Of a stretch of 28,120 bases of DNA, positions 5,883 through 28,120 are shown in pieces (positions within the stretch are counted from its first letter, which is position 1; each line of letters starts with the position of its first letter). The stretch is from a virus (Duplodnaviria; Heunggongvirae; Uroviricota; Caudoviricetes). Below the pieces are notes generated by a model that did not search any database, was not told the DNA's origin, and worked only from the letters and a program-made list of their open reading frames with translations. Location of the stretch: IMG/VR virus record IMGVR_UViG_2690316278_000016. One strand, written 5' to 3'. A program made the translations under genes and the position numbers.

Positions 5883-6905
5883 ATGACTGTAAAGGTGATA
5901 GACCTTTTTTGTGGTGCTGGCGGATTAACTCATGGTTTGCAGCTTGCGGGGCTTGATGTCGTTGCAGGCATTGACCTTGAGGGGGAATGTAGGTTTCCCT
6001 ATGAAAGAAACAATAAATCTAAGTTTATTGAGCAAGATATCGCTAAAGTAACAAAAGAGGAACTGCTGAGGCTTTATGGTGATGCGTCTGTAAAAGTATT
6101 GGCAGGATGCGCACCTTGCCAACCTTTTTCAAAATATACTCAAGGAAAAGATAAGGCTGATGATAAAAAATGGCCTCTTCTTTATGAGTTCGAACGTTTA
6201 ATTCGCGAAGTATCTCCAGAAATCGTAACAATGGAGAACGTTCCTGATGTAACTAAACATAAAGTTTATAATGATTTTTATAATTCATTGTTAAAGTTGG
6301 GCTATTATGTTTGGGCGTCTAAGATTGATTGTGTCGAATATGGAATCCCACAAAACCGTTCCCGTCATGTATTGTTGGCCTCAAAATTGGGGGCGATTGA
6401 GTTAGTAAAACGTGACGATGTTATTTTGAAAACAGTTAGAGATGCAATAGGAAATCTTCCTCCATTAGAAGATGGCCAAACAGATCCAAATGATATATTA
6501 CATAGAGCCAGTAAATTAAATCCGATTAATAAAAAAAGAATTATACACTCTGTTCCTGGTGGTACATGGAAGGACTGGCCGAAAGAGTTGGTTGCCGCTT
6601 GTCATATGAAATCCAGCGGTAAAGGGTATGCTAGTGTATATGGGCGCATGTCTTGGGATAAGCCAAGTCCAACAATTACAACTCTTTGTTATGGTTTCGG
6701 GAATGGGCGTTTTGGACATCCAGAACAGCATAGAGCGATTTCTCTTAGAGAGGCTGCTTTATTGCAAACTTTCCCGATGGATTATATTTTTGTAGAAGAC
6801 AAAAACAAGTTTGTTATAAGAAGTATTGGGAAAATGATAGGTAATGCTGTTCCTGTGGAACTAGGAAAAGCAATTGGGCAATCAATCAAGAACCATTTAG
6901 AATGA
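5883..6905 (+). CDS. DNA (cytosine-5)-methyltransferase, complete
   Basis: Motif I FCGAGG, catalytic motif IV GCAPCQPFS, motif VI ENV, motif VIII QNRSR, C-terminal GNAVPVELG; GGAG RBS 6 nt upstream of ATG 5883; AT-rich codon usage unlike flanking phage genes. Confidence 0.88.
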   Translation: MTVKVIDLFCGAGGLTHGLQLAGLDVVAGIDLEGECRFPYERNNKSKFIEQDIAKVTKEELLRLYGDASVKVLAGCAPCQPFSKYTQGKDKADDKKWPLLYEFERLIREVSPEIVTMENVPDVTKHKVYNDFYNSLLKLGYYVWASKIDCVEYGIPQNRSRHVLLASKLGAIELVKRDDVILKTVRDAIGNLPPLEDGQTDPNDILHRASKLNPINKKRIIHSVPGGTWKDWPKELVAACHMKSSGKGYASVYGRMSWDKPSPTITTLCYGFGNGRFGHPEQHRAISLREAALLQTFPMDYIFVEDKNKFVIRSIGKMIGNAVPVELGKAIGQSIKNHLE

Positions 6906-13023: not shown

Positions 13024-14129
13024 ATGCGCCAGGAAACCCGCTTTAAATTTAATGCTTACCTGTCCCGTGTTGCCGAGCTGAACGGCATCGACGCCGGTGA
13101 TGTGTCGAAAAAATTCACCGTTGAACCGTCGGTCACCCAGACCCTGATGAACACCATGCAGGAGTCCTCTGACTTTCTGACCCGCATCAACATTGTGCCG
13201 GTCAGTGAAATGAAAGGGGAAAAAATTGGCATCGGTGTCACCGGCTCCATCGCCAGCACCACCGACACCGCCGGTGGCACCGAGCGTCAGCCGAAGGACT
13301 TCTCGAAGCTGGCGTCAAACAAGTACGAATGCGACCAGGTTAACTTCGATTTTTATATCCGCTACAAAACGCTTGACCTGTGGGCGCGTTATCAGGATTT
13401 CCAGCTCCGTATCCGTAACGCCATTATCAAACGCCAGTCCCTTGATTTCATCATGGCCGGTTTTAACGGCGTGAAGCGTGCCGAAACCTCTGACCGCAAC
13501 AGTAATCCGATGCTGCAGGATGTGGCGGTCGGCTGGCTGCAGAAATACCGAATGAAGCCCCGGCGCGCGTGATGAGCAAGGTCACTGACGAGGAAGGCCG
13601 CACCACCTCTGAGGTTATCCGCGTGGGTAAGGGCGGTGATTATGTAAGCCTCGATGNNNNNNNNNNNNNNNNNNNNNNNNNNNNNNNNNNNNNGGTGATG
13701 GATGCGACCAACAACCTGATTGAACCTTGGTATCAGGAAGACCCTGACCTTGTGGTGATTGTGGGGCGTCAGCTACTGGCGGACAAGTATTTCCCTATCG
13801 TCAACAAGGAGCAGGATAACAGCGAGATGCTGGCCGCTGACGTCATCATCAGCCAGAAACGCATCGGTAACCTGCCGGCGGTACGCGTCCCGTACTTCCC
13901 GGCGGATGCGATGCTCATCACGAAGCTGGAAAACCTGTCCATCTACTACATGGATGACAGCCATCGCCGCGTGATTGTGGAAAACCCGAAACTCGACCGC
14001 GTGGAGAACTACGAGTCAATGAACATTGATTACGTGGTGGAGGACTACGCCGCCGGTTGTCTGGTGGAAAAAATTAAGGTCGGTGATTTCTCCACACCGG
14101 CTAAAGCGACCGCAGAGCCGGGAGCGTAA
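13024..14129 (+). pseudogene. N: Major capsid protein (P2 gpN-like), reading frame broken near 13550 and containing a 37-nt N-gap (13657-13693)
   Basis: Two consecutive ORFs (13024-13572 and 13569-14129) in different frames together span about 368 codons, the expected size for gpN; may be a true frameshift or a sequencing indel. Confidence 0.75.
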
Positions 14130-18409: not shown

Positions 18410-19236
18410 ATGAACACTCTCGCAAATATTCAGGAACTCGCGCGCGCACTGCGCAACATGATCCGCACCGGCATTAAGGTCGGTTTCGACGATAATGCCG
18501 GTNNNNNNNNNNNNNNNNNNNNNNNNNNNNNNNNNNNNNNNNNNNNNNNNNNNNNNNNNNNNNNNNNNNNNNNNNNNNNNNNNNNNNNNNNNNNNNNNNN
18601 NNNNNNNNNNNNNNNNNNNNNNNNNNNNNNNNNNNNNNNNNNNNNNACACGGCAGCGACCGGCATTATCGTCGAAACCGACCTTAATGCCGGTCGCTGCC
18701 GTGTGCAGACCGGCGGCATGTGCACCGACTGGCTTCAGTGGCTGACCCATCGCGCCGGACGTTCGCGCACATGGTGGGCACCTTCCGTGGGGGAACAGGT
18801 GCTGATTCTGGCCGTAGGCGGTGAACTCGACACGGCGTTCGTTCTGCCGGGGATTTATTCCGGTGATAACCCCGCGCCGTCTGCGTCGGCGGATGCCCTG
18901 CATATCCGTTTCCCTGACGGGGCGGTGATTGAGTATGAACCTGAAACCAGTGCACTCACGGTAAGCGGAATTAAAACGGCCAGCGTGACGGCTTCTGATT
19001 CTGTTACTGCCACGGTGCCGGTGGTCACGGTGAAAGCATCAACCCGCGTCACTCTGGACACGCCGGAGGTGGTCTGCACAAACAAGCTGATCACTGGCAC
19101 GCTGGAAGTGCAGAAGGGCGGGACGATGCGCGGCAACATTGAACACACCGGCGGTGAACTCTCATCAAACGGGAAGGTACTGCATACCCATAAACACCCC
19201 GGCGACAGCGGCGGCACAACCGGGAGTCCTCTATGA
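18410..19236 (+). CDS. V: Baseplate spike/assembly protein V-like, interrupted by a 144-nt N-gap with inverted-duplicate flanks
   Basis: N-terminus MNTLANIQELARALRNMIRTGI before the gap, then ...GIIVETDLNAGRCRVQTGGMCTDWLQWL... to stop at 19236; true length probably about 211 aa once the gap/duplication is removed. Confidence 0.75.
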
Positions 19237-20493: not shown

Positions 20494-21016
20494 TTCGCGA
20501 CTGCTGCCGACCGGCTCATCACCGCTTGAAGTTGCCGCCGCAAAAGCCTGTGCGGAAATTGAAAAAACGCCGGTCAGGATTCGTGAACTGTGGAACCCGG
20601 ATACCTGTCCGGCAAATCTGCTGCCGTGGCTGGCGTGGGCGTTTTCGGTCGACAGGTGGGATGAAAAGTGGCCGGAAGCGACAAAACGCGCCGTTATCCG
20701 CGATGCCTATTTCATCCACTGTCATAAAGGCACTATCGGCGCAATCCGGCGTGTGGTGGAGCCGCTCGGCTATCTCATCAACGTGACGGAGTGGTGGGAA
20801 AACAGTGACCCGCCCGGCACCTTCCGGCTTGATATTGGTGTACTGGAAAGCGGCATCACAGAGGCAATGTATCAGGAAATGGAACGGCTTATTGCTGATG
20901 CCAAACCTGCAAGCCGTCATCTTATTGGCCTGAACATTACCCGGGACATTCCCGGCTACCTGTTCGCCGGTGGTGTGGCTTACGACGGCGATGTAATTAC
21001 GGTTTACCCCGGATAA
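20486..21016 (+). CDS. I: Tail/baseplate protein I-like
   Basis: 176-aa ORF overlapping the J stop; ends ...AYDGDVITVYPG. Confidence 0.8.
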   Translation: MSDSRLLPTGSSPLEVAAAKACAEIEKTPVRIRELWNPDTCPANLLPWLAWAFSVDRWDEKWPEATKRAVIRDAYFIHCHKGTIGAIRRVVEPLGYLINVTEWWENSDPPGTFRLDIGVLESGITEAMYQEMERLIADAKPASRHLIGLNITRDIPGYLFAGGVAYDGDVITVYPG

Positions 21017-21026
21017 GTGAGGAATA

Positions 21027-21846
21027 ATGAGCACAAAATTCAGAACCGTTATCACCACTGCCGGTGCAGCAAAGCTGGCAGCGGCAACCGCACCGGGAGG
21101 GCGGAAGGTCAACATTACCACGATGGCCGTCGGGGATGGCGGTGGTAAATTGCCTGTCCCGGATGCCGGACAGACCGGGCTTATCCACGAAGTCTGGCGA
21201 CATACGCTGAACAAAATCAGCCAGGACAAACGAAACAGTAATTATATTATCGCAGAGCTGGTTATTCCGCCGGAGGTGGGCGGTTTCTGGATGCGTGAGC
21301 TTGGCCTGTACGATGATGCGGGAACGTTAATTGCCGTGGCGAACATGGCCGAAAGTTATAAGCCAGCTCTTGCCGAAGGCTCAGGGCGTTCGCAGACCTG
21401 TCGCATGGTCATCATCGTCAGCAGTGTGGCCTCGGTGGAGCTGACCATTGACACCACAACGGTGATGGCGACACAGGATTACGTTGATGACAAAATTGCA
21501 GAGCACGAACAGTCACGACGTCACCCGGACGCCTCGCTGACCGCAAAAGGTTTTACTCAGTTAAGCAGTGCGACCAACAGCACGTCTGAAACACTGGCCG
21601 CAACGCCGAAAGCGGTAAAGGCCGCCTATGACCTTGCTAACGGGAAATACACTGCACAGGACGCCACTACAGCGCGAAAAGGTCTTGTCCAGCTCAGTAG
21701 TGCCACCAACAGCACGTCTGAAACGCTTGCGGCAACGCCAAAGGCGGTTAAGACAGCGTATGACCTTGCTAACGGGAAATACACTGCACAGGACGCCACT
21801 ACAGCGCGAAAAGGTCTTGTCCAGCTAAGTAGTGCCATCAACAGCG
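21027..21846 (+). CDS. H: Tail fibre protein, 5' portion (copy 1) including phage-fibre tandem repeats; truncated at an ambiguous base
   Basis: N-terminus MSTKFRTVITTAGAAKLAAATAPGG...MAVGDGGG; repeat units ...QLSSATNSTSETLAATPKAVK...; ORF then runs into a gene-I-like 3' end after the n at 21847. Confidence 0.7.
21545..21846 (+). repeat. In-frame 132-bp (44-aa) tandem repeat, about 2.3 copies, phage tail-fibre repeat
   Basis: Unit starts at 21545, 21677 and 21809 are near-identical at DNA level; further partial copies at 22914-22993 and 23092-23218 across N-gaps. Confidence 0.8.
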
Positions 21847-21847
21847 N

Positions 21848-21893
21848 AGCAACTTACGACGGTGAAGTCATTACCATTTATCCGGACGATTAA
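21848..21893 (+). other. Remnant 3' end of a second gene-I-like ORF fused after the ambiguous base
   Basis: Encodes ATYDGEVITIYPDD-stop, paralogous to the end of gene I (AYDGDVITVYPG-stop), followed 2 nt later by a second tail-fibre start. Confidence 0.5.
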
Positions 21894-21895
21894 GC

Positions 21896-22764
21896 ATGAG
21901 TACCACAACACGAAAATTTAAAACCATTATCACCGATACGGGTGCAAAAAAATTAGCGCAGGCAACCGCGCCAGATGGGAAACCTGTCCGCCTGACACAT
22001 ATGGCCGTGGGTGACGGCGGCGGTACTTTACCCACGCCAGACAGTAAGCAGACCCGTCTTGTGCATGAGGTGTGGCGACATACCGTTAATCGCGTCACCC
22101 TGGACGCAACACATCAGAACCACATTATTGCGGAGCTGGTTATTCCTCCTGAAACGGGCGGATTCTGGATCCGGGAAATTGGTGTGTTTGATGAGCACGG
22201 CGATTTGATCGCGGTAGGCAATACTGCCGAAAGTTACAAGCCAACCGTTGCCGAAGGATCCGGACGTGCACAAACATTTCGCACCATTCTGACCGTATCC
22301 AGCACTGCCACTGTGGCGCTTACCGTGGATAACACCATGGTGATGGCCACAGTGAATTACGTGGATGACAAACTGAAAGAGCATGAACAGTCACGACGTC
22401 ACCCGGACGCCTCGCTGACCGCAAAAGGCCTTGTCCAGCTCAGCAACGCCACCAACAGCACGTCTGAAACGCTGGCAGCGACACCAAAAGCCGTTAAGGC
22501 AGTAATGGATGAAACGAACAAGAAAGCCCCATTAAACAGCCCGGCACTGACCGGAACGCCAACAACACCAACTGCGCGACAGGGAACGAATAATACCCAA
22601 ATCGCAAGCACGGCTTTCGTTATGGCTGCGATTGCCGCACTTGTAGACTCTTCGCCTGATGCACTGAACACACTGAACGAGCTGGCGGCGGCGCTGGGCA
22701 ACGACCCGAATTTTGCGACCACCATGACTAACGCGCTTGCGGGTAAGCAACCGAAAGATGCCAC
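21896..22764 (+). CDS. Tail fibre protein, 5' portion (copy 2, diverged paralogue of copy 1), truncated at an N-gap
   Basis: N-terminus MSTTTRKFKTIITDTGAKKLAQATAPDGKPVRLTHMAVGDGGG..., colinear with but clearly diverged from copy 1; same SRRHPDASLTAKGLVQLS repeat entry. Confidence 0.65.
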
Positions 22765-22775
22765 NNNNNNNNNNN

Positions 22776-25161
22776 TTCGCAGACCTGTCGCATGGTCATC
22801 ATCGTCAGCAGTGTGGCCTCGGTGGAGCTGACCATTGACACCACAACGGTGATGGCGACACAGGATTACGTTGATGACAAAATTGCAGAGCACGAACAGT
22901 CACGACGTCACCCGGACGCCTCGCTGACCGCAAAAGGCCTTGTCCAGCTCAGTAGTGCCACCAACAGCACGTCTGAAACGCTTGCGGCAACGCNNNNNNN
23001 NNNNNNNNNNNNNNNNNNNNNNNNNNNNNNNNNNNNNNNNNNNNNNNNNNNNNNNNNNNNNNNNNNNNNNNNNNNNNNNNNNNNNNNNNNNACCAACAGC
23101 ACGTCTGAAACACTGGCCGCAACGCCGAAAGCGGTAAAGGCCGCCTATGACCTTGCTAACGGGAAATACACTGCACAGGACGCCACTACAGCGCGAAAAG
23201 GTCTTGTCCAGCTCAGTANNNNNNNNNNNNNNNNNNNNNNNNNNNNNNNNNNNNNNNNNNNNNNNNNNNNNNNNNNNNNNNNNNNNNNNNNNNNNNNNNN
23301 NNNNNNNNNNNNNNNNNNNNNNNNNNNNNNNNNNNNNNNNNNNNNNNNNNNNNNNNNNNNNNNNNNNNNNNNNNNNNNNNNNNNNNNNNNNNNNNNNNNN
23401 NNNNNNNNNNNNNNNNNNNNNNNNNNNNNNNNNNNNNNNNNNNNNNNNNNNNNNNNNNNNNNNNNNNNNNNNNNNNNNNNNNNNNNNNNNNNNNNNNNNN
23501 NNNNNNNTGCCACTCTGACGGCGCTGGCGGGGCTTGCTACTGCGGCAGACAGGTTTCCGTATTTTACGGGGAATGATGTCGCCAGCCTGGCAACCCTGAC
23601 AAAAGTCGGGCGGGATATTCTTGCGAAATCGACCGTTGCCGCCGTTATCGAATACCTCGGTTTACAGGAAACGGTAAATCAGGCTTCTGGCGCATTACAG
23701 AAAAACCAGAACGGCGCAGATATTCCGGGGAAAGATACCTTCACCAAAAATATTGGTGCCTGCCGCGCATATAGCTCATGGCTGAATATTGGTGGCGATA
23801 GTCAGGTCTGGACAACCGCGCAATTTATTTCGTGGCTGGAGAGTCAGGGAGCATTTAACCATCCTTACTGGATGTGCAAAGGCTCATGGGCTTATGCAAA
23901 TAATAAGGTCATTACAGATACAGGTTGCGGAAATATTTGTCTTGCAGGTGCTGTGGTGGAAGTTATTGGCACTCGCGGCGCAATGACCATACGCGTTACC
24001 ACGCCGAGCACGTCCAGCGNNNNNNNNNNNAACGACCCGAATTTTGCGACCACCATGACTAACGCGCTTGCGGGTAAGCAACCGAAAGATGCCACCCTGA
24101 CGGCGCTGGCCGGACTTACTACTGCGGCAGGCAAGTTTCCGTATTTTACGGGGAATGATGTCGCCAGCCTGGCAACCCTGACAAAAGTCGGGCGGGATAT
24201 TCTTGCGAAATCGACCGTTGCTGCCGTTATCGAATACCTCGGTTTACGAGAACTCGGCACAAGCGGGGAGAAAATACCGTTACTCAGTACAGCGAATACC
24301 TGGACTAATCGACAAACATTCAGCGGTGGCCTTTCTGGTGAACTATCCGGCAATGCTTCTACAGCTGCAAAATTAAAAACTGCCAGGAAAATAAGCAATG
24401 TGGCTTTTGATGGTTCCTCCGATATCACATTAAAAGCAAGTCATGTTGGTGCGTTTGCCTTAGGGAAAACAGGAAGCACCGTTGCGAATGATAAAGCAGT
24501 TGGATGGAACTGGAGTAGCGGAGCCTATAACGCAACTATTAGTGGTGCATCAACGTTAATTATTCATTTTTATATGGGAGAAGGAAGTTGTCCTGCAGCT
24601 CAGTTTCGGATTAATTATAAAAATGGCGGTATTTTTTATCGTTCAGCCCGTGATGGTTATGGTTTTGAAGCCGACTGGTCCGAATTTTACACCACCAGAA
24701 AACCTTCAGCAGGAGATGTTGGTGCACTGCCGTTATCTGGTGGTCAACTGAATGGTGCACTGGGTATCGGAACATCCAGTGCTCTTGGCGGTAATTCGAT
24801 TGTATTGGGTGATAATGACACGGGCTTTAAACAAAAAGGCGATGGTAATCTGGATGTTTATGCTAATAACGTCCATGTTATGCGCTTTGTCTCCGGAAGC
24901 ATTCAAAGTAATAAAACCATAAATATTACGGGACGTGTTAATCCCTCGGATTACGGTAACTTTGATTCCCGCTATGTGAGAGATGTCAGACTTGGCACAC
25001 GAGTTGTTTAGACCATGAAGAAAGGCGTGATGTATGAAAAATCAGGCCATGTAATCACGGGGCTTGGTATTATCGGTGAAGTCGATGGTGATGATCCGGC
25101 AGTATTCAGACCAATACAAAAGTTAATTAACGGAACATGGTATAACGTATCGCAGGTATAA
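22776..25161 (+). pseudogene. H: Tail fibre mosaic: repeated blocks and two alternative C-terminal regions joined through four N-gaps; in-frame TAG at 25009-25011
   Basis: 22776-22940 duplicates 21393-21557; 23508-23660 and 24110-24250 are near-duplicates; C-terminal region ends ...RLGTRVV-TAG-TMKKGVMYEK...[17 protein letters not shown]-stop, same frame either side of the TAG. Confidence 0.55.
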
Positions 25162-25163
25162 TC

Positions 25164-25442
25164 ATGCAGCATTTAAAAAACATTGTCGCAGGTAATCCAA
25201 AAACCGTTGAACAATACCAGCTAACAAAGAATTTTGATGTTATCTGGTTATGGTCCGAAGATGGAAAAAATTGGCATGAGGAATTAAAAAACTTTCAGGA
25301 GGATACAATAAAACTGGCTTACACAGTTGAGGGAATAATTATTGCTATAGACAAGGATGTATCAGCAATTAATCCAGAAGGTTTAAGTGTCGTTGAGTTG
25401 CCTGATATTACAGCAAATCGCCGGGCTGATATTTCGGGCAAC
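25164..25442 (+). pseudogene. G: Tail fibre assembly protein (tfa, P2 gpG-like), 5' half only, truncated by IS3-family element
   Basis: N-terminus [22 protein letters not shown]...[13 protein letters not shown] is colinear with the two intact tfa paralogues downstream, then switches to transposase sequence after the n at 25444. Confidence 0.7.
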
Positions 25443-26582
25443 TNTGAAAATCAACTTTCGATCAGTGAAGGCGCTTCCCGATTATCTCTTCCTGAAGGCA
25501 CTTTAGGACAATGGGTTACCGCCGCCAGAAAAGGGCTCGGTACTCCTGGTTCCCGCACGGTGGCTGAACTGGAATCTGAAATTCTGCAACTGCGTAAGGC
25601 GTTAAATGAAGCTCGCCTTGAGCGAGATATATTAAAAAAAGCAACAGCGTATTTTGCACAGGAGTCGCTGAAAAATACGCGTTAATCGAACAATGGCGAC
25701 AACAATTTCCCATTGAAGCGATGTGTCAGGTATTTGGTGTATCCAGGAGCGGTTATTACAACTGGGTACAGCATGAACCCTCAGACAGAAAACAAAGTGA
25801 TGAGCGGCTAAAACTGGAGATTAAGGTGGCACATATCCGCACTCGCGAAACATATGGAACCCGGCGGCTCCAGACGGAGCTGGCAGAGAATGGCATCATC
25901 GTTGGTCGTGACCGACTGGCACGTCTTCGTAAGGAGCTAAGGCTACGCTGTAAGCAGAAACGCAAGTTCAGAGCGACTACGAACTCGAACCACAATCTGC
26001 CAGTTGCGCCAAATCTGCTGAACCAGACGTTCGCTCCTACAGCACCAAATCAGGTCTGGGTGGCGGACCTGACGTATGTTGCCACACAGGAGGGATGGTT
26101 GTACCTCGCTGGCATCAAAGATGTTTATACGTGCGAAATTGTCGGCTACGCCATGGGAGAGCGCATGACAAAAGAGCTGACAGGTAAAGCCCTGTTTATG
26201 GCGCTCAGGAGCCAGCGCCCACCTGCCGGGCTAATCCACCACTCTGATCGAGGTTCACAGTACTGCGCATACGATTACCGGGTCATACAGGAGCAGTCTG
26301 GTCTGAAAACATCAATGTCGCGTAAAGGTAACTGTTACGACAACGCTCCGATGGAAAGCTTCTGGGGAACGCTGAAAAATGAGAGCCTGAGCCACTATCG
26401 TTTTAATAACCGGGATGAAGCCATCTCAGTAATACGGGAATACATTGAGATTTTCTACAATCGTCAGCGTCGTCACTCTCGTCTGGGGAATATCTCCCCG
26501 GCAGCCTTCAGGGAAAAATATCATCAGATGGCTGCTTAAAAAAAGAACAAATGGTAGTGTCCGCTATTGCCAGTACACCTCA
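25443..26582 (+). mobile_element. IS3-family insertion sequence, apparently 5'-truncated (orfA lacks its first ~20-25 codons and no left inverted repeat or UTR is present)
   Basis: orfA-like frame to stop at 25683-25685 (…WVTAARKG…ILKKATAYFAQESL), A7 slippery run at 25634-25640, orfB in the -1 frame to 26539 with DDE/rve-like residues (WVADLTYV, HSDRGSQY, YDNAPMESFW); boundaries approximate. Confidence 0.75.
25634..25640 (+). promoter_or_regulatory. Programmed -1 ribosomal frameshift site (A AAA AAA) for the OrfAB transposase fusion
   Basis: Heptamer lies in the orfA frame just before the orfA stop; the -1 frame is open from here into orfB. Confidence 0.55.
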
Positions 26583-26849
26583 GAGTTTTACACCACAACC
26601 CGCAAACCCTCTGCGGGAGATGTTGGTGCATATACGCAGGCAGAATGTAACTCAAGGTTTATTACAGGTATTCGCCTTGGTGGTCTGTTATCTGTTCAGA
26701 CATGGAATGGTCCCGGATGGTCTGACAGGTCAGGTTATGTTGTTACCGGTTCCGTTAACTCAAACAGAGATGAACTAATTGATACAACTCAGGCAAGGCC
26801 AATTCAGTATTGCATTAATGGGACGTGGTATAACGCGGGGAGTATTTAA
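26583..26849 (+). pseudogene. 3' remnant of an alternative tail-fibre C-terminal (receptor-binding) domain, detached from its 5' part by the IS
   Basis: Encodes EFYTTTRKPSAGDVGA...[17 protein letters not shown]-stop, paralogous to the H C-terminus (EFYTTRKPSAGDVGA...[17 protein letters not shown]); immediately followed by a tfa gene. Confidence 0.65.
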
Positions 26850-26851
26850 CG

Positions 26852-27564
26852 ATGATGCACTTAAAAAACATTTCTGCTGGTAATCCTGAAACAAAAGAGC
26901 AATACCAGCTAACGAAACAATTTAACATCAAATGGCTTTATACAGAGGATGGGAAAAACTGGTATGAGGAACAAAAGAACTTTCAGCCTGATACGTTGAA
27001 AATGGTCTATGACCACAACGGCGTTATTATTTGTATTGAAAAGGATGTTTCAGCAATTAATCCGGAAGGCGCAAGCGTCGTTGAGGTTCCTGATATTACA
27101 GCAAATCGCCGGGCTGATATTTCAGGTAAATGGATGTTCAAAGATGGCGTAGTGATAAAGCGAACTTATACCGGGGAAGAGCAGAGGCAACAAGCGGAAA
27201 ATGAAAAGCAAAGCCTGCTACAGCTNNNNNNNNNNNNNNNNNNNNNNNNNNNNNNNNNNNNNNNNNNNNNNNNNNNNNNNNNNNNNNNNNNNNNNNNNNN
27301 NNNNNNNNNNNNNNNNNNNNNNNNNNNNNNNNNNNNNNNNNNNNNNATACCGGGGAAGAGCAGAGGCAACAAGCGGAAAATGAAAAGCAAAGCCTGCTAC
27401 AGCTCGTCAGGGATAAAACCCAGCTATGGGACTCACAGCTACGGCTGGGCATTATTTCCGACGAGAATAAACAAAAATTAACCGAGTGGATGCTCTATGC
27501 GCAGAAGGTCGAATCCACAGACACCTCCAGCCTGCCAGTAACGTTTCCCGAACAACCAGAATGA
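26852..27564 (+). CDS. Tail fibre assembly protein (tfa paralogue 2), containing an N-gap with duplicated flanks
   Basis: N-terminus [22 protein letters not shown]...[20 protein letters not shown]; gap at 27226-27346 is flanked by an identical ~59-bp sequence on both sides. Confidence 0.75.
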
Positions 27565-27567
27565 AAC

Positions 27568-27594
27568 AAGGCCCGATATCGGGCCTTAATTTTT
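27568..27594. terminator. Palindromic hairpin with T-run between convergent tfa genes (bidirectional terminator)
   Basis: AAGGCCCGATATCGGGCCTT perfect palindrome at 27568-27587 followed by AATTTTT. Confidence 0.6.
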
Positions 27595-28120
27595 ACTCAG
27601 GCTTTTGTGGCCATTCTGGCTTTGCCGTATCCACACGGCTGACCAGAACACTGTAGCGTTCCCATGCTTCCAGTCGTGTGCGTTCCTCGTCCGTCGCCAT
27701 ATTCAGCCTGACAGCGCGTTCCAGCGGCTGGATGACTGATTCAGCTTCGGAAAGCAATGCGGCCTTTTGTGATTCGGCCTGTTGTTGCTGTTCGTCAGCC
27801 GTATAAATCCGTTTAACCACAGCTCCGTCCTTAAACATCCACTTACCGGAATCATCAGCACGACGATTAGCTGTAATATCAGGAACCTCAACGACGCTAT
27901 AACCTTCAGGGTTAAGCGTGGAGGCATCTTTGGTGATGGCGACAATAATATTATTTGCATCGTAAACAATCTTTATTGTGTCTGGCTGAAAGTTCTTCAC
28001 TTCCTCATACCAGTTTTTTCCGTCCTCAGAGTAAAGCCAGATGACTCCGTGCTTCTTTGTTAACTCATACTGCTCCACTGTTTTAGCATTACCTGCTTTT
28101 ATGTTCTTTAAGTGCATCAT
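27593..28120 (-). CDS. Tail fibre assembly protein (tfa paralogue 3), opposite strand, complete
   Basis: 175 aa, [22 protein letters not shown]...[20 protein letters not shown]; start codon at the last 3 bases of the window. Confidence 0.8.

Follow-up and report, generated by a model that had tools for sequence, protein, structure and literature searches.

An IS600 copy beside an apparent tfa–transposase fusion in a Shigella sonnei prophage scaffold: a probable mis-join of unrelated contigs on one side and a likely fibre-gene insertion on the other

Does a tfa gene that appears to run straight into a transposase record an event in the life of a prophage, or only an event in the assembly of its sequence? 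The question is raised by a 28,120-nucleotide stretch of tailed-phage DNA (IMG/VR record IMGVR_UViG_2690316278_000016; Caudoviricetes), referred to here in its full length as the window. A preliminary description had proposed that an IS3-family element in the window truncates the first tfa gene, is itself truncated at its 5′ end, and separates a tail fibre from its alternative C-terminus, either by an IS-associated deletion or rearrangement or by a mis-join through an IS repeat. The reading that we favour, with a probability of roughly 85%, is that the element is an IS600 copy in a scaffolded short-read draft of S. sonnei, and that its left "junction" is a mis-join of unrelated contigs at an N.

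Window positions 20551–28120 are identical to CXCB01000030.1 (GCA_001255415.1), a draft contig of 33.8 kb that continues past the window and evidently comes from S. sonnei. The scaffold can be divided into pieces, p1 to p11, defined as the segments between runs of N. Their arrangement, with loci used for comparison designated by L numbers, is as follows.

1 to 21846: p1–p3, from P2-like prophage A and breaking off within its fibre gene H_A
21847: single N between p3 and p4, at a synteny break
21848 to 22764, plus strand: p4, prophage-B sequence comprising 48 nt from the end of gene I and 869 nt from the start of gene H, 100% identical to L005 9111>8195
22776 to 22993 and 23092 to 23218: p5 and p6, closest (90% and 98%, respectively) to H_A of the E. 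coli prophage-A relative L025
23508 to 24019, plus strand: p7, prophage-B gene H running through the crossover site into the C-terminal segment that later bears the IS, 100% identical to L005 8200>7689
24031 to 25443, plus strand: p8, a lambdoid prophage interloper, 100% identical to L020/L021/L024 5017–6429
25444, no strand: single N, a scaffold joint of non-overlapping contig ends, at a synteny break with complete genomes
25445 to 27225: p9, IS600 nt 127–1264 followed by L005 7362>6717
27347 onward: p10 and p11, L005 6774>5839 and then 5919>4741

By megablast against complete E. coli genomes the element is IS600, which bears out its placement in the IS3 family. Thousands of the matches carry the annotation [quoted passage not shown], and the IS600 matches all begin at the first base after the N at 25444. 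The full-length copy used for reference, from E. coli O145:H28 (L002:275-1538), is 1264 bp long, with a left inverted repeat TGAGGTAGCCTGAGTTTAACGGACAC, a right end reading ...GTGTCCGCTATTGCCAGTACACCTCA and a flanking 3-bp GTT duplication, and its orfA starts at IS nt 65. What is absent from the window is nt 1–126, comprising the left inverted repeat, the 64-nt leader and 21 codons of orfA, and no left inverted repeat was found anywhere in the window even with up to 3 mismatches allowed. The missing repeat and the missing N-terminal codons had thus been described correctly. The parts of the element that are present can be listed in order.

25445 to 26582, plus strand: IS600 (IS3 family) nt 127–1264, 99.8% identical to the L002 copy (2 mismatches, 0 gaps) and 100% identical to the S. 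sonnei copies in L013, L015 and L016
25446 to 25685, plus strand: orfA codons 22–100 and stop, translated as ENQLSISEG...ESLKNTR*
25634 to 25640, plus strand: slippery run of seven A (A AAA AAA in the orfA frame), with a predicted programmed −1 frameshift into OrfAB
25721 to 26539, plus strand: orfB, 272 aa from its ATG in the list of open reading frames, in the −1 frame relative to orfA, holding the DDE/rve catalytic part
26557 to 26582, plus strand: right inverted repeat GTGTCCGCTATTGCCAGTACACCTCA, identical to the right end of the full L002 copy

The frameshift site is intact, as the preliminary description had it, and a −1 slip there is predicted to join 86 and 299 residues into a product of 385 aa, which equals the length of the IS600 OrfAB annotated in RefSeq with a programmed frameshift. 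Pfam hits precomputed on IS600 copies with nucleotide identities of 100% or 99.9% place PF00665 (rve), PF13683 and PF13333 on both the 272-aa and the 385-aa products of the aligned copies, and PF13276 also on the products of orfB length. The right end of the element (..CCAGTACACCTCA) lies at 26582 and has the canonical terminal ..CCTCA, and the reverse complement of the right repeat pairs with the left repeat TGAGGTAGCC...GGACAC. Only the right flank of the copy (GAG...) has been assembled. Positions 25445–26582 are taken to be part of an ordinary IS600 copy, probably full-length and functional.

The apparent fusion is an ORF at 25164..25685 that reads as tfa, then X, then IS600 OrfA from codon 22 (ENQLSISEGAS...; ENQLSISEGASRLSLPEG...), and the ambiguous base is the single N at 25444. 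The abrupt switch that had been reported is therefore present and no product of chance, with the scaffold setting a tfa end GGGCAACT before an IS600 start TGAAAATCAAC across the N. Two single Ns occur in the window (21847 and 25444), and both sit exactly at synteny breaks relative to complete genomes; in the output of SSPACE and GapFiller, a lone N of this kind would mark a joint between non-overlapping contig ends. The sequence on either side of N 25444 runs on normally at other loci, tfa continuing past the break point as GGCAACT/GGATGTTCAAAG, or GGCAACT/GGATGTTCAAAGATGG, in S. sonnei loci and in E. coli NCTC86. Since native tfa runs GGCAACT/GGATGTTC, the "aact" before the N belongs to tfa and not to the IS. 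An assignment of the "ct" to IS600 nt 125–126 was considered and rejected, GGCAACT being native to tfa in NCTC86 and the S. sonnei loci. A genuine IS remnant or deletion junction should be uninterrupted and reproducible in reads or in relatives; the joint here is an N and is absent from the relatives compared.

The left flank is the end of p8, which also matches E. coli NCTC86 at 99.2% identity (L003 3829–5244), where the counterpart is the fibre and tfa region of a lambdoid prophage, positioned after gpJ and Lom. The piece contains a fibre constant region and a variable C-terminus, then an ORF of 48 aa, and stops 280 nt into tfa (25164–25443). The 48-aa ORF is created by an in-frame TAG at 25009–25011 in the p8 fibre and has been recorded in 2201 blocks of the collection; S. 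sonnei 53G (HE616528.1; PMC5447701) is among the loci read. An intact tfa of 177 aa follows this ORF in all ten of the ten S. sonnei loci examined, and tfa is intact in NCTC86 as well, so that the proposal of a tfa truncated by the IS finds no support. The lambdoid contig simply breaks off mid-tfa, where its relatives carry on with the whole gene. It counts against the favoured reading that no obvious long repeat boundary coincides with tfa nt 280, the exact run past the break being only 17 nt; from nt 161 onward the tfa paralogues share 93% identity, the lambdoid tfa is 93% identical to the P2-like one, and the two lambdoid copies are identical at the break. The stop at nt 280 is tentatively attributed to halted edge extension.

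Taken literally, the scaffold gives the order tfa and then IS600 on one strand, and the junction could be read as real: a deletion or rearrangement associated with IS600, or else an illegitimate recombination event, would have removed nt 1–126 and fused the remnant to lambdoid tfa codon 94, uniting lambdoid and P2-like sequences. Shigella genomes do undergo IS-mediated rearrangements (PMC7373316), and true IS600-associated truncations occur at the lambdoid locus in L015, L016, L018, L022 and L023, where an IS600 copy of like orientation sits beside a truncated fibre gene, 1.1 kb downstream of the lambdoid tfa. A direct join, however, would have been spanned by reads and assembled without an N, and here the N falls exactly on the break, as does the other single N of the window. 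The tfa/IS600 junction was found in none of the complete E. coli genomes searched by megablast and in none of the S. sonnei loci compared, the joint has no microhomology past "ct", and the neighbouring scaffold is demonstrably mis-ordered. We regard such a fusion as very improbable. There is no evidence for a real 5′ truncation of IS600 or for disruption of tfa, and the idea of a truly truncated element loses its footing where the start of IS600 falls at the scaffold-joint N.

The right junction is the only IS junction in continuous sequence, the left being a scaffold joint, and it leads into the following features.

26583 to 26849, plus strand: codons 569–656 and stop of prophage-B gene H, the true right flank of the IS and contiguous with it (0 N between)
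26852 to 27564, plus strand: prophage-B tfa, really 534 nt and 177 aa, inflated by a 121-N gap (27226–27346) and a duplicated overlap of 58 nt
27593 to 28120, minus strand: second tfa of the prophage-B invertible segment, opposed to the first, 100% identical to L005 6001–6528

An 88-codon fibre C-terminal fragment directly abuts the right end of IS600 at 26582, and the earlier observation that a fibre fragment, not the rest of tfa, lies on this side holds. Positions 26580–27225 are 100% identical to L005 7362>6717 and to L004 (FDAARGOS_943) 5998–6643, and this match, which falls in the tail-fibre segment that a P2-like prophage can invert, extends to L005–L011, L013 and L014. Ten loci have an opposed tfa beside a P2-like gene H and an invertase of the Resolvase family. 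In the L005 arrangement gene H encodes 656 aa, and IS600 ends between its codons 568 (TCA, common to the end of the IS) and 569 (GAG), the junction reading CCAGTACACCTCA/GAGTTTTACACC, or CCTCA/GAGTTTTAC, within continuous sequence. No N interrupts the 1138 nt of IS on one side of it or the 643 nt of flank on the other.

The right junction is confined to its source in every search. Nothing spanning it was found by megablast against 5,426 complete E. coli genomes, its exact 41-mer had 0 matches among GTDB representative genomes, and it was absent from ten loci sampled with the neighbouring tfa. A 134-aa ORF that reads out of the IS across the junction is not on record by exact look-up, and a 75-aa out-of-frame ORF across it occurs in 1 contig only, CXCB01000030.1, which is the source itself and lends no independent support. 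Conceivably, then, the right junction could also be an artefact, with p9 a gap-filling chimera produced by the greedy extension of GapFiller and no IS600 in the P2-like fibre gene at all. This we judge quite unlikely. Besides the long N-free stretch across the junction, the IS stops precisely at its canonical ..CCTCA, and the 3 nt (TCA) shared by the IS end and its target are too few for a false merge. Recent IS600 activity in S. sonnei is high and strain-specific (PMC7373316), and three other IS600 sites are present in the same prophage region across S. sonnei strains: one near the invertase (L006/L010), one in tfa (L007/L011/L013), and a second copy in L007/L011/L013. A fourth site, beside tfa at the paralogous lambdoid fibre locus, is the one noted above in five loci. 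With IS600 at several sites in other strains, such insertions are commonplace. The right junction is very probably a genuine, strain-specific insertion of IS600 at codon 568/569 of gene H; this insertion is probably the only new item at the locus, and a routine one for Shigella.

One observation counts against the view of a simple insertion. A stretch of 326 nt from gene H (L005 7688>7363) should follow p7 and precede the IS but is absent from the assembly, and this sequence is unique among the loci compared. Its loss as a collapsed repeat was considered and rejected, the best match at the lambdoid locus being 80%. The contig p7 ends at L005 7689 in spite of the unique sequence that comes next, where a simple insertion should have let the assembly reach the left end of the IS. 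IS3-family elements are known for adjacent deletions, as are the IS-rich genomes of Shigella (PMC7373316). A second alternative is thus that the IS600 in the P2-like fibre is real and that its left side carries a deletion (at least 326 nt of gene H), another IS or a rearrangement. We hold this to be unlikely: contigs below fragment size (300–500 nt) are discarded by the Sanger pipeline (PMC5320598), a step that could lose a piece of 326 nt; other gaps of the scaffold likewise conceal sequence found in relatives; and there is no positive evidence for a deletion.

Those other gaps also bear on the favoured reading of a mis-join at N 25444. A single P2-like prophage, L005, matches positions 21848–22764, 23508–24019, 26580–27225 and 27347–28120 and the remainder of the contig at 100% identity and in colinear order, and p4 is equally identical to eight other S. 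sonnei and E. coli loci. Although p4 and p7 adjoin in L005 with a 6-nt overlap, the scaffold inserts 743 positions of Ns and foreign fragments, among them the H_A-like fragments from the fibre of another prophage, between these two pieces of prophage B. An exact 58-nt overlap of p9 and p10, which are contiguous in L004 and L005, is hidden behind 121 Ns (27226–27346), and p10 and p11 have an exact overlap of 81 nt and yet 54 Ns between them. Further upstream, a 144-N gap (18503–18646) has a 36-nt fold-back at its flanks, which overlap in the reference, and a 37-N gap (13657–13693) stands for 4 nt. The notion that the runs of N are deliberate masking of a continuous sequence was rejected, the flanks of several runs overlapping or duplicating one another.

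The last 65 nt of p4 are exactly the first 65 nt of p8, so p8 is an alternative branch of the assembly graph that leaves a conserved fibre repeat. A 739-aa "fibre" ORF at 22792..25011 is stitched together from three different fibre genes, and by these comparisons at least three paralogous fibre loci have contributed contigs, which are interleaved in the scaffold. The closed genome of strain 53G has the P2-like prophage at ~1.558 Mb and the lambdoid locus at ~2.078 Mb, and since these loci are ~0.5 Mb apart, the two flanks of IS600 belong to different prophages. That the two flanks do not match had been recognised at the outset; they are lambdoid on the left and P2-like on the right, and an IS-associated deletion parting the fibre from "its" alternative C-terminus is unsupported, given flanks from different prophages and a chimeric fibre ORF. 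The joint thus combines the marks of a mis-join: an N at a synteny break, flanks that are distant in a closed genome, and other gaps of the same scaffold that are wrong. Sequence comparison establishes what each piece is and where it comes from, that tfa is intact in the relatives and that the gaps are spurious. In that light, the tfa–OrfA fusion, the absent left repeat and the 21 absent codons of orfA are read as unassembled sequence, not biology.

Prophage B also provides a context for DNA inversion. A crossover site at 23641–23685 within p7, TTCCTGTAAACCGAGGTATTCGATAA, presumably corresponds to a gix-like sequence, and the invertible segment in the source has the opposite orientation to that in 53G and FDAARGOS_943. 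The IS600 insertion sits in whichever invertible C-terminal segment currently joins the constant part of H. One could imagine a real inter-prophage rearrangement in the isolate, by recombination between copies of IS600 or by an invertase acting in trans on gix-like sites in the lambdoid prophage and in the P2-like one, that would have carried the lambdoid fibre and tfa segment to the side of an IS600 in the P2-like fibre gene, with the N hiding a short junction; we consider this extremely improbable.

How would a mis-join of this kind arise? Work on the IS content of Shigella has shown that IS600 is among five ISs that are expanding in the genus, with the highest recent activity in S. sonnei, where its sites are strain-specific; 53G has 52 copies, the population median is 39, and the isolates of the Holt collection were sequenced with a mean read length of 59 bp (PMC7373316). 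An element of 1264 bp in ~40–50 copies is consequently not spannable by such short reads. The CXBN, CXBR and CXBV accession sets are S. sonnei assemblies of the Holt 2012 collection (PMC5447701), and CXCB appears to belong to the same series. The Sanger pipeline, by which 299 S. sonnei assemblies were produced with a mean of 405 contigs, uses Velvet, SSPACE and 120 rounds of GapFiller and has been called "greedy... can lead to false joins" (PMC5320598). In GapFiller, contig edges grow inward and a gap is closed only when both extensions merge (PMC3446322). From the accession series and the behaviour of the gaps, we infer that CXCB01000030.1 was built with this combination of Velvet, SSPACE and GapFiller.

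Under the favoured reading of a mis-join, the scaffolder would have put the lambdoid contig, with its fibre C-terminus and 280 nt of tfa, into the gap; this contig has in common with the P2-like fibre gene the exact 65-nt repeat, a mechanical reason for its being drawn in, and its tfa is 93% identical to the P2-like one. The IS would have been extended for 1138 nt leftward from its unique right flank and then have stopped, leaving a token N, a course of events that reproduces the sequence as given. The part that remained unassembled would comprise IS600 nt 1–126 and the 326 nt of gene H. The simplest left side would be those 326 nt of gene H (L005 7688>7363) followed by IS600 nt 1–126, with a duplication of GAG, and a simple full-length insertion would predict the left junction GACTGGTCAGAG/TGAGGTAGCCTGAG, or GACTGGTCAGAG/TGAGGTAGCC at the start of the IS. 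Of the proposed mis-join through an IS repeat, the mis-join stands and the route does not, at least in the strict sense, as it would run by way of tail-fibre paralogy and an unfilled gap.

What remains for the biology of the isolate is modest. The insertion would inactivate one invertible C-terminal variant of the P2-like tail fibre, which fits the documented, ongoing expansion of ISs and decay of prophages in S. sonnei and poses no new question; IS600 is a long-known member of the IS3 family, and the locus is of an already-known kind. The locus does carry a caution. Where an IS-rich genome such as that of Shigella has been scaffolded from short reads, an N at a "junction" points to an assembly joint, and any gene fusions, truncated ISs or chimeric tail-fibre genes that appear there should be kept out of annotation and not be treated as biology.

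Comparison with known systems places each part of the locus. The element shares with IS600 the same layout of orfA and orfB, the −1 frameshift site of seven A, the rve (DDE) domain and a right inverted repeat ending in CA, and it differs in the lack of the first 126 nt (left repeat, leader and 21 orfA codons), for which the assembly gap is blamed. Every defining feature of IS600 within reach of the assembled sequence is present, and the left repeat and the target duplication would lie behind the gap. As in the −1 frameshifting of IS911, IS3 and IS150, an A-rich heptamer lies near the end of orfA, orfB is in the −1 frame and a fused OrfAB is predicted, a likeness that rests on the RefSeq note "programmed frameshift" and a check of geometry. 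The heptamer of IS911 and IS150 is A AAA AAG, whereas the window copy of IS600 has A AAA AAA and then G. Similarly, prophage B has the makings of a Gin/Cin/Pin-type segment (Mu G, P1 C, e14 P), with a shared constant fibre part, a Resolvase-family invertase and two opposed variable C-termini, each with its own tfa; unlike those segments, one of its variable segments is broken by IS600 in the source isolate. Finally, the scaffold resembles the known artefacts of Velvet, SSPACE and GapFiller (PMC5320598, PMC3446322), the pipeline presumed for CXCB01000030.1, in that contigs from paralogous repeats are set in series, Ns stand between overlapping contigs, and contig edges end part-way into a multicopy IS.

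The single N at window position 21847 marks the place where two P2-like prophages, A and B, meet. To its left lies the fibre gene of prophage A, which breaks off at its nt 820, and the whole of window 1-21846 belongs to this prophage, at 97.5% identity to E. coli JNE120442. To its right are the final 48 nt of gene I and the start of gene H of prophage B, both 100% identical to L005, the locus carrying that prophage. The scaffold has therefore fused two prophages inside a fibre gene, and the ORFs of 288 and 311 aa at this joint are artefactual fragments.

Fibre sequences are also interleaved a little further along, in 22765-23507, where two short pieces of 218 nt and 127 nt have their best match in the prophage A fibre gene of JNE120442 (90% and 98% identity, respectively). 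The JNE120442 locus (L025) has three copies of the 127-nt piece, spaced 132 nt apart. Together with 398 Ns, the two pieces separate two prophage B contigs that directly abut each other in L005. The 739-aa "fibre" ORF at 22792..25011 is chimeric, with parts from three or more genes.

Other gaps in the scaffold are unreliable too. At 27226-27404, the 58 nt directly after a 121-N gap are an exact copy of the pre-gap sequence, the product of an unmerged contig overlap; because of this gap and repeat, the tail-fibre assembly gene (tfa) of prophage B, with a true length of 534 nt, appears 179 nt overlong and out of frame. At 18467-18693, inside the equivalent of the baseplate assembly protein V gene of an E. 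coli reference locus (L027), a 36-nt reverse-complement fold-back flanks a 144-N gap. The flanks of this gap overlap each other in L027, so assembly error accounts for the gap and for the inverted stretch. Finally, the 37 Ns at 13657-13693 stand for only 4 nt of the E. coli reference P2-family major capsid gene. No meaning can be attached to the length of a gap in this scaffold.

A different kind of interruption is seen in the lambdoid fibre C-terminus, where an in-frame TAG at 25009-25011 leaves a 48-aa ORF (25015-25161). The identical 48-aa product is recorded in 2201 blocks of the collection, S. sonnei 53G among them, but the fibre gene of E. coli NCTC86 is uninterrupted. The TAG appears to be a pseudogenising mutation that became fixed in the S. 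sonnei lineage.

The P2-like fibre segment is of the invertible kind. A putative crossover site for inversion, gix/pix-like and with the sequence TTCCTGTAAACCGAGGTATTCGATAA when the complementary strand is read, occurs at window 23641-23685 and at L005 8023-8067, and a Resolvase-family invertase is encoded just past the window end. The P2-like segment in the source genome and L005 has the opposite orientation to that in 53G and FDAARGOS_943. At the lambdoid locus, whose own invertase is only a remnant, both orientations occur among S. sonnei genomes (L017 and L019 versus L020, L021 and L024).

Beyond the window's own site, S. sonnei genomes carry independent IS600 insertions at four further positions, three of them in the invertible tail-fibre region of the P2-like prophage and one in the paralogous lambdoid fibre locus (loci L006, L007, L010, L011, L013, L015, L016, L018, L022 and L023). 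In L015-type genomes, IS600 adjoins a fibre gene cut to 104 aa, with the lysis genes coming next, an arrangement that suggests a real IS-associated deletion.
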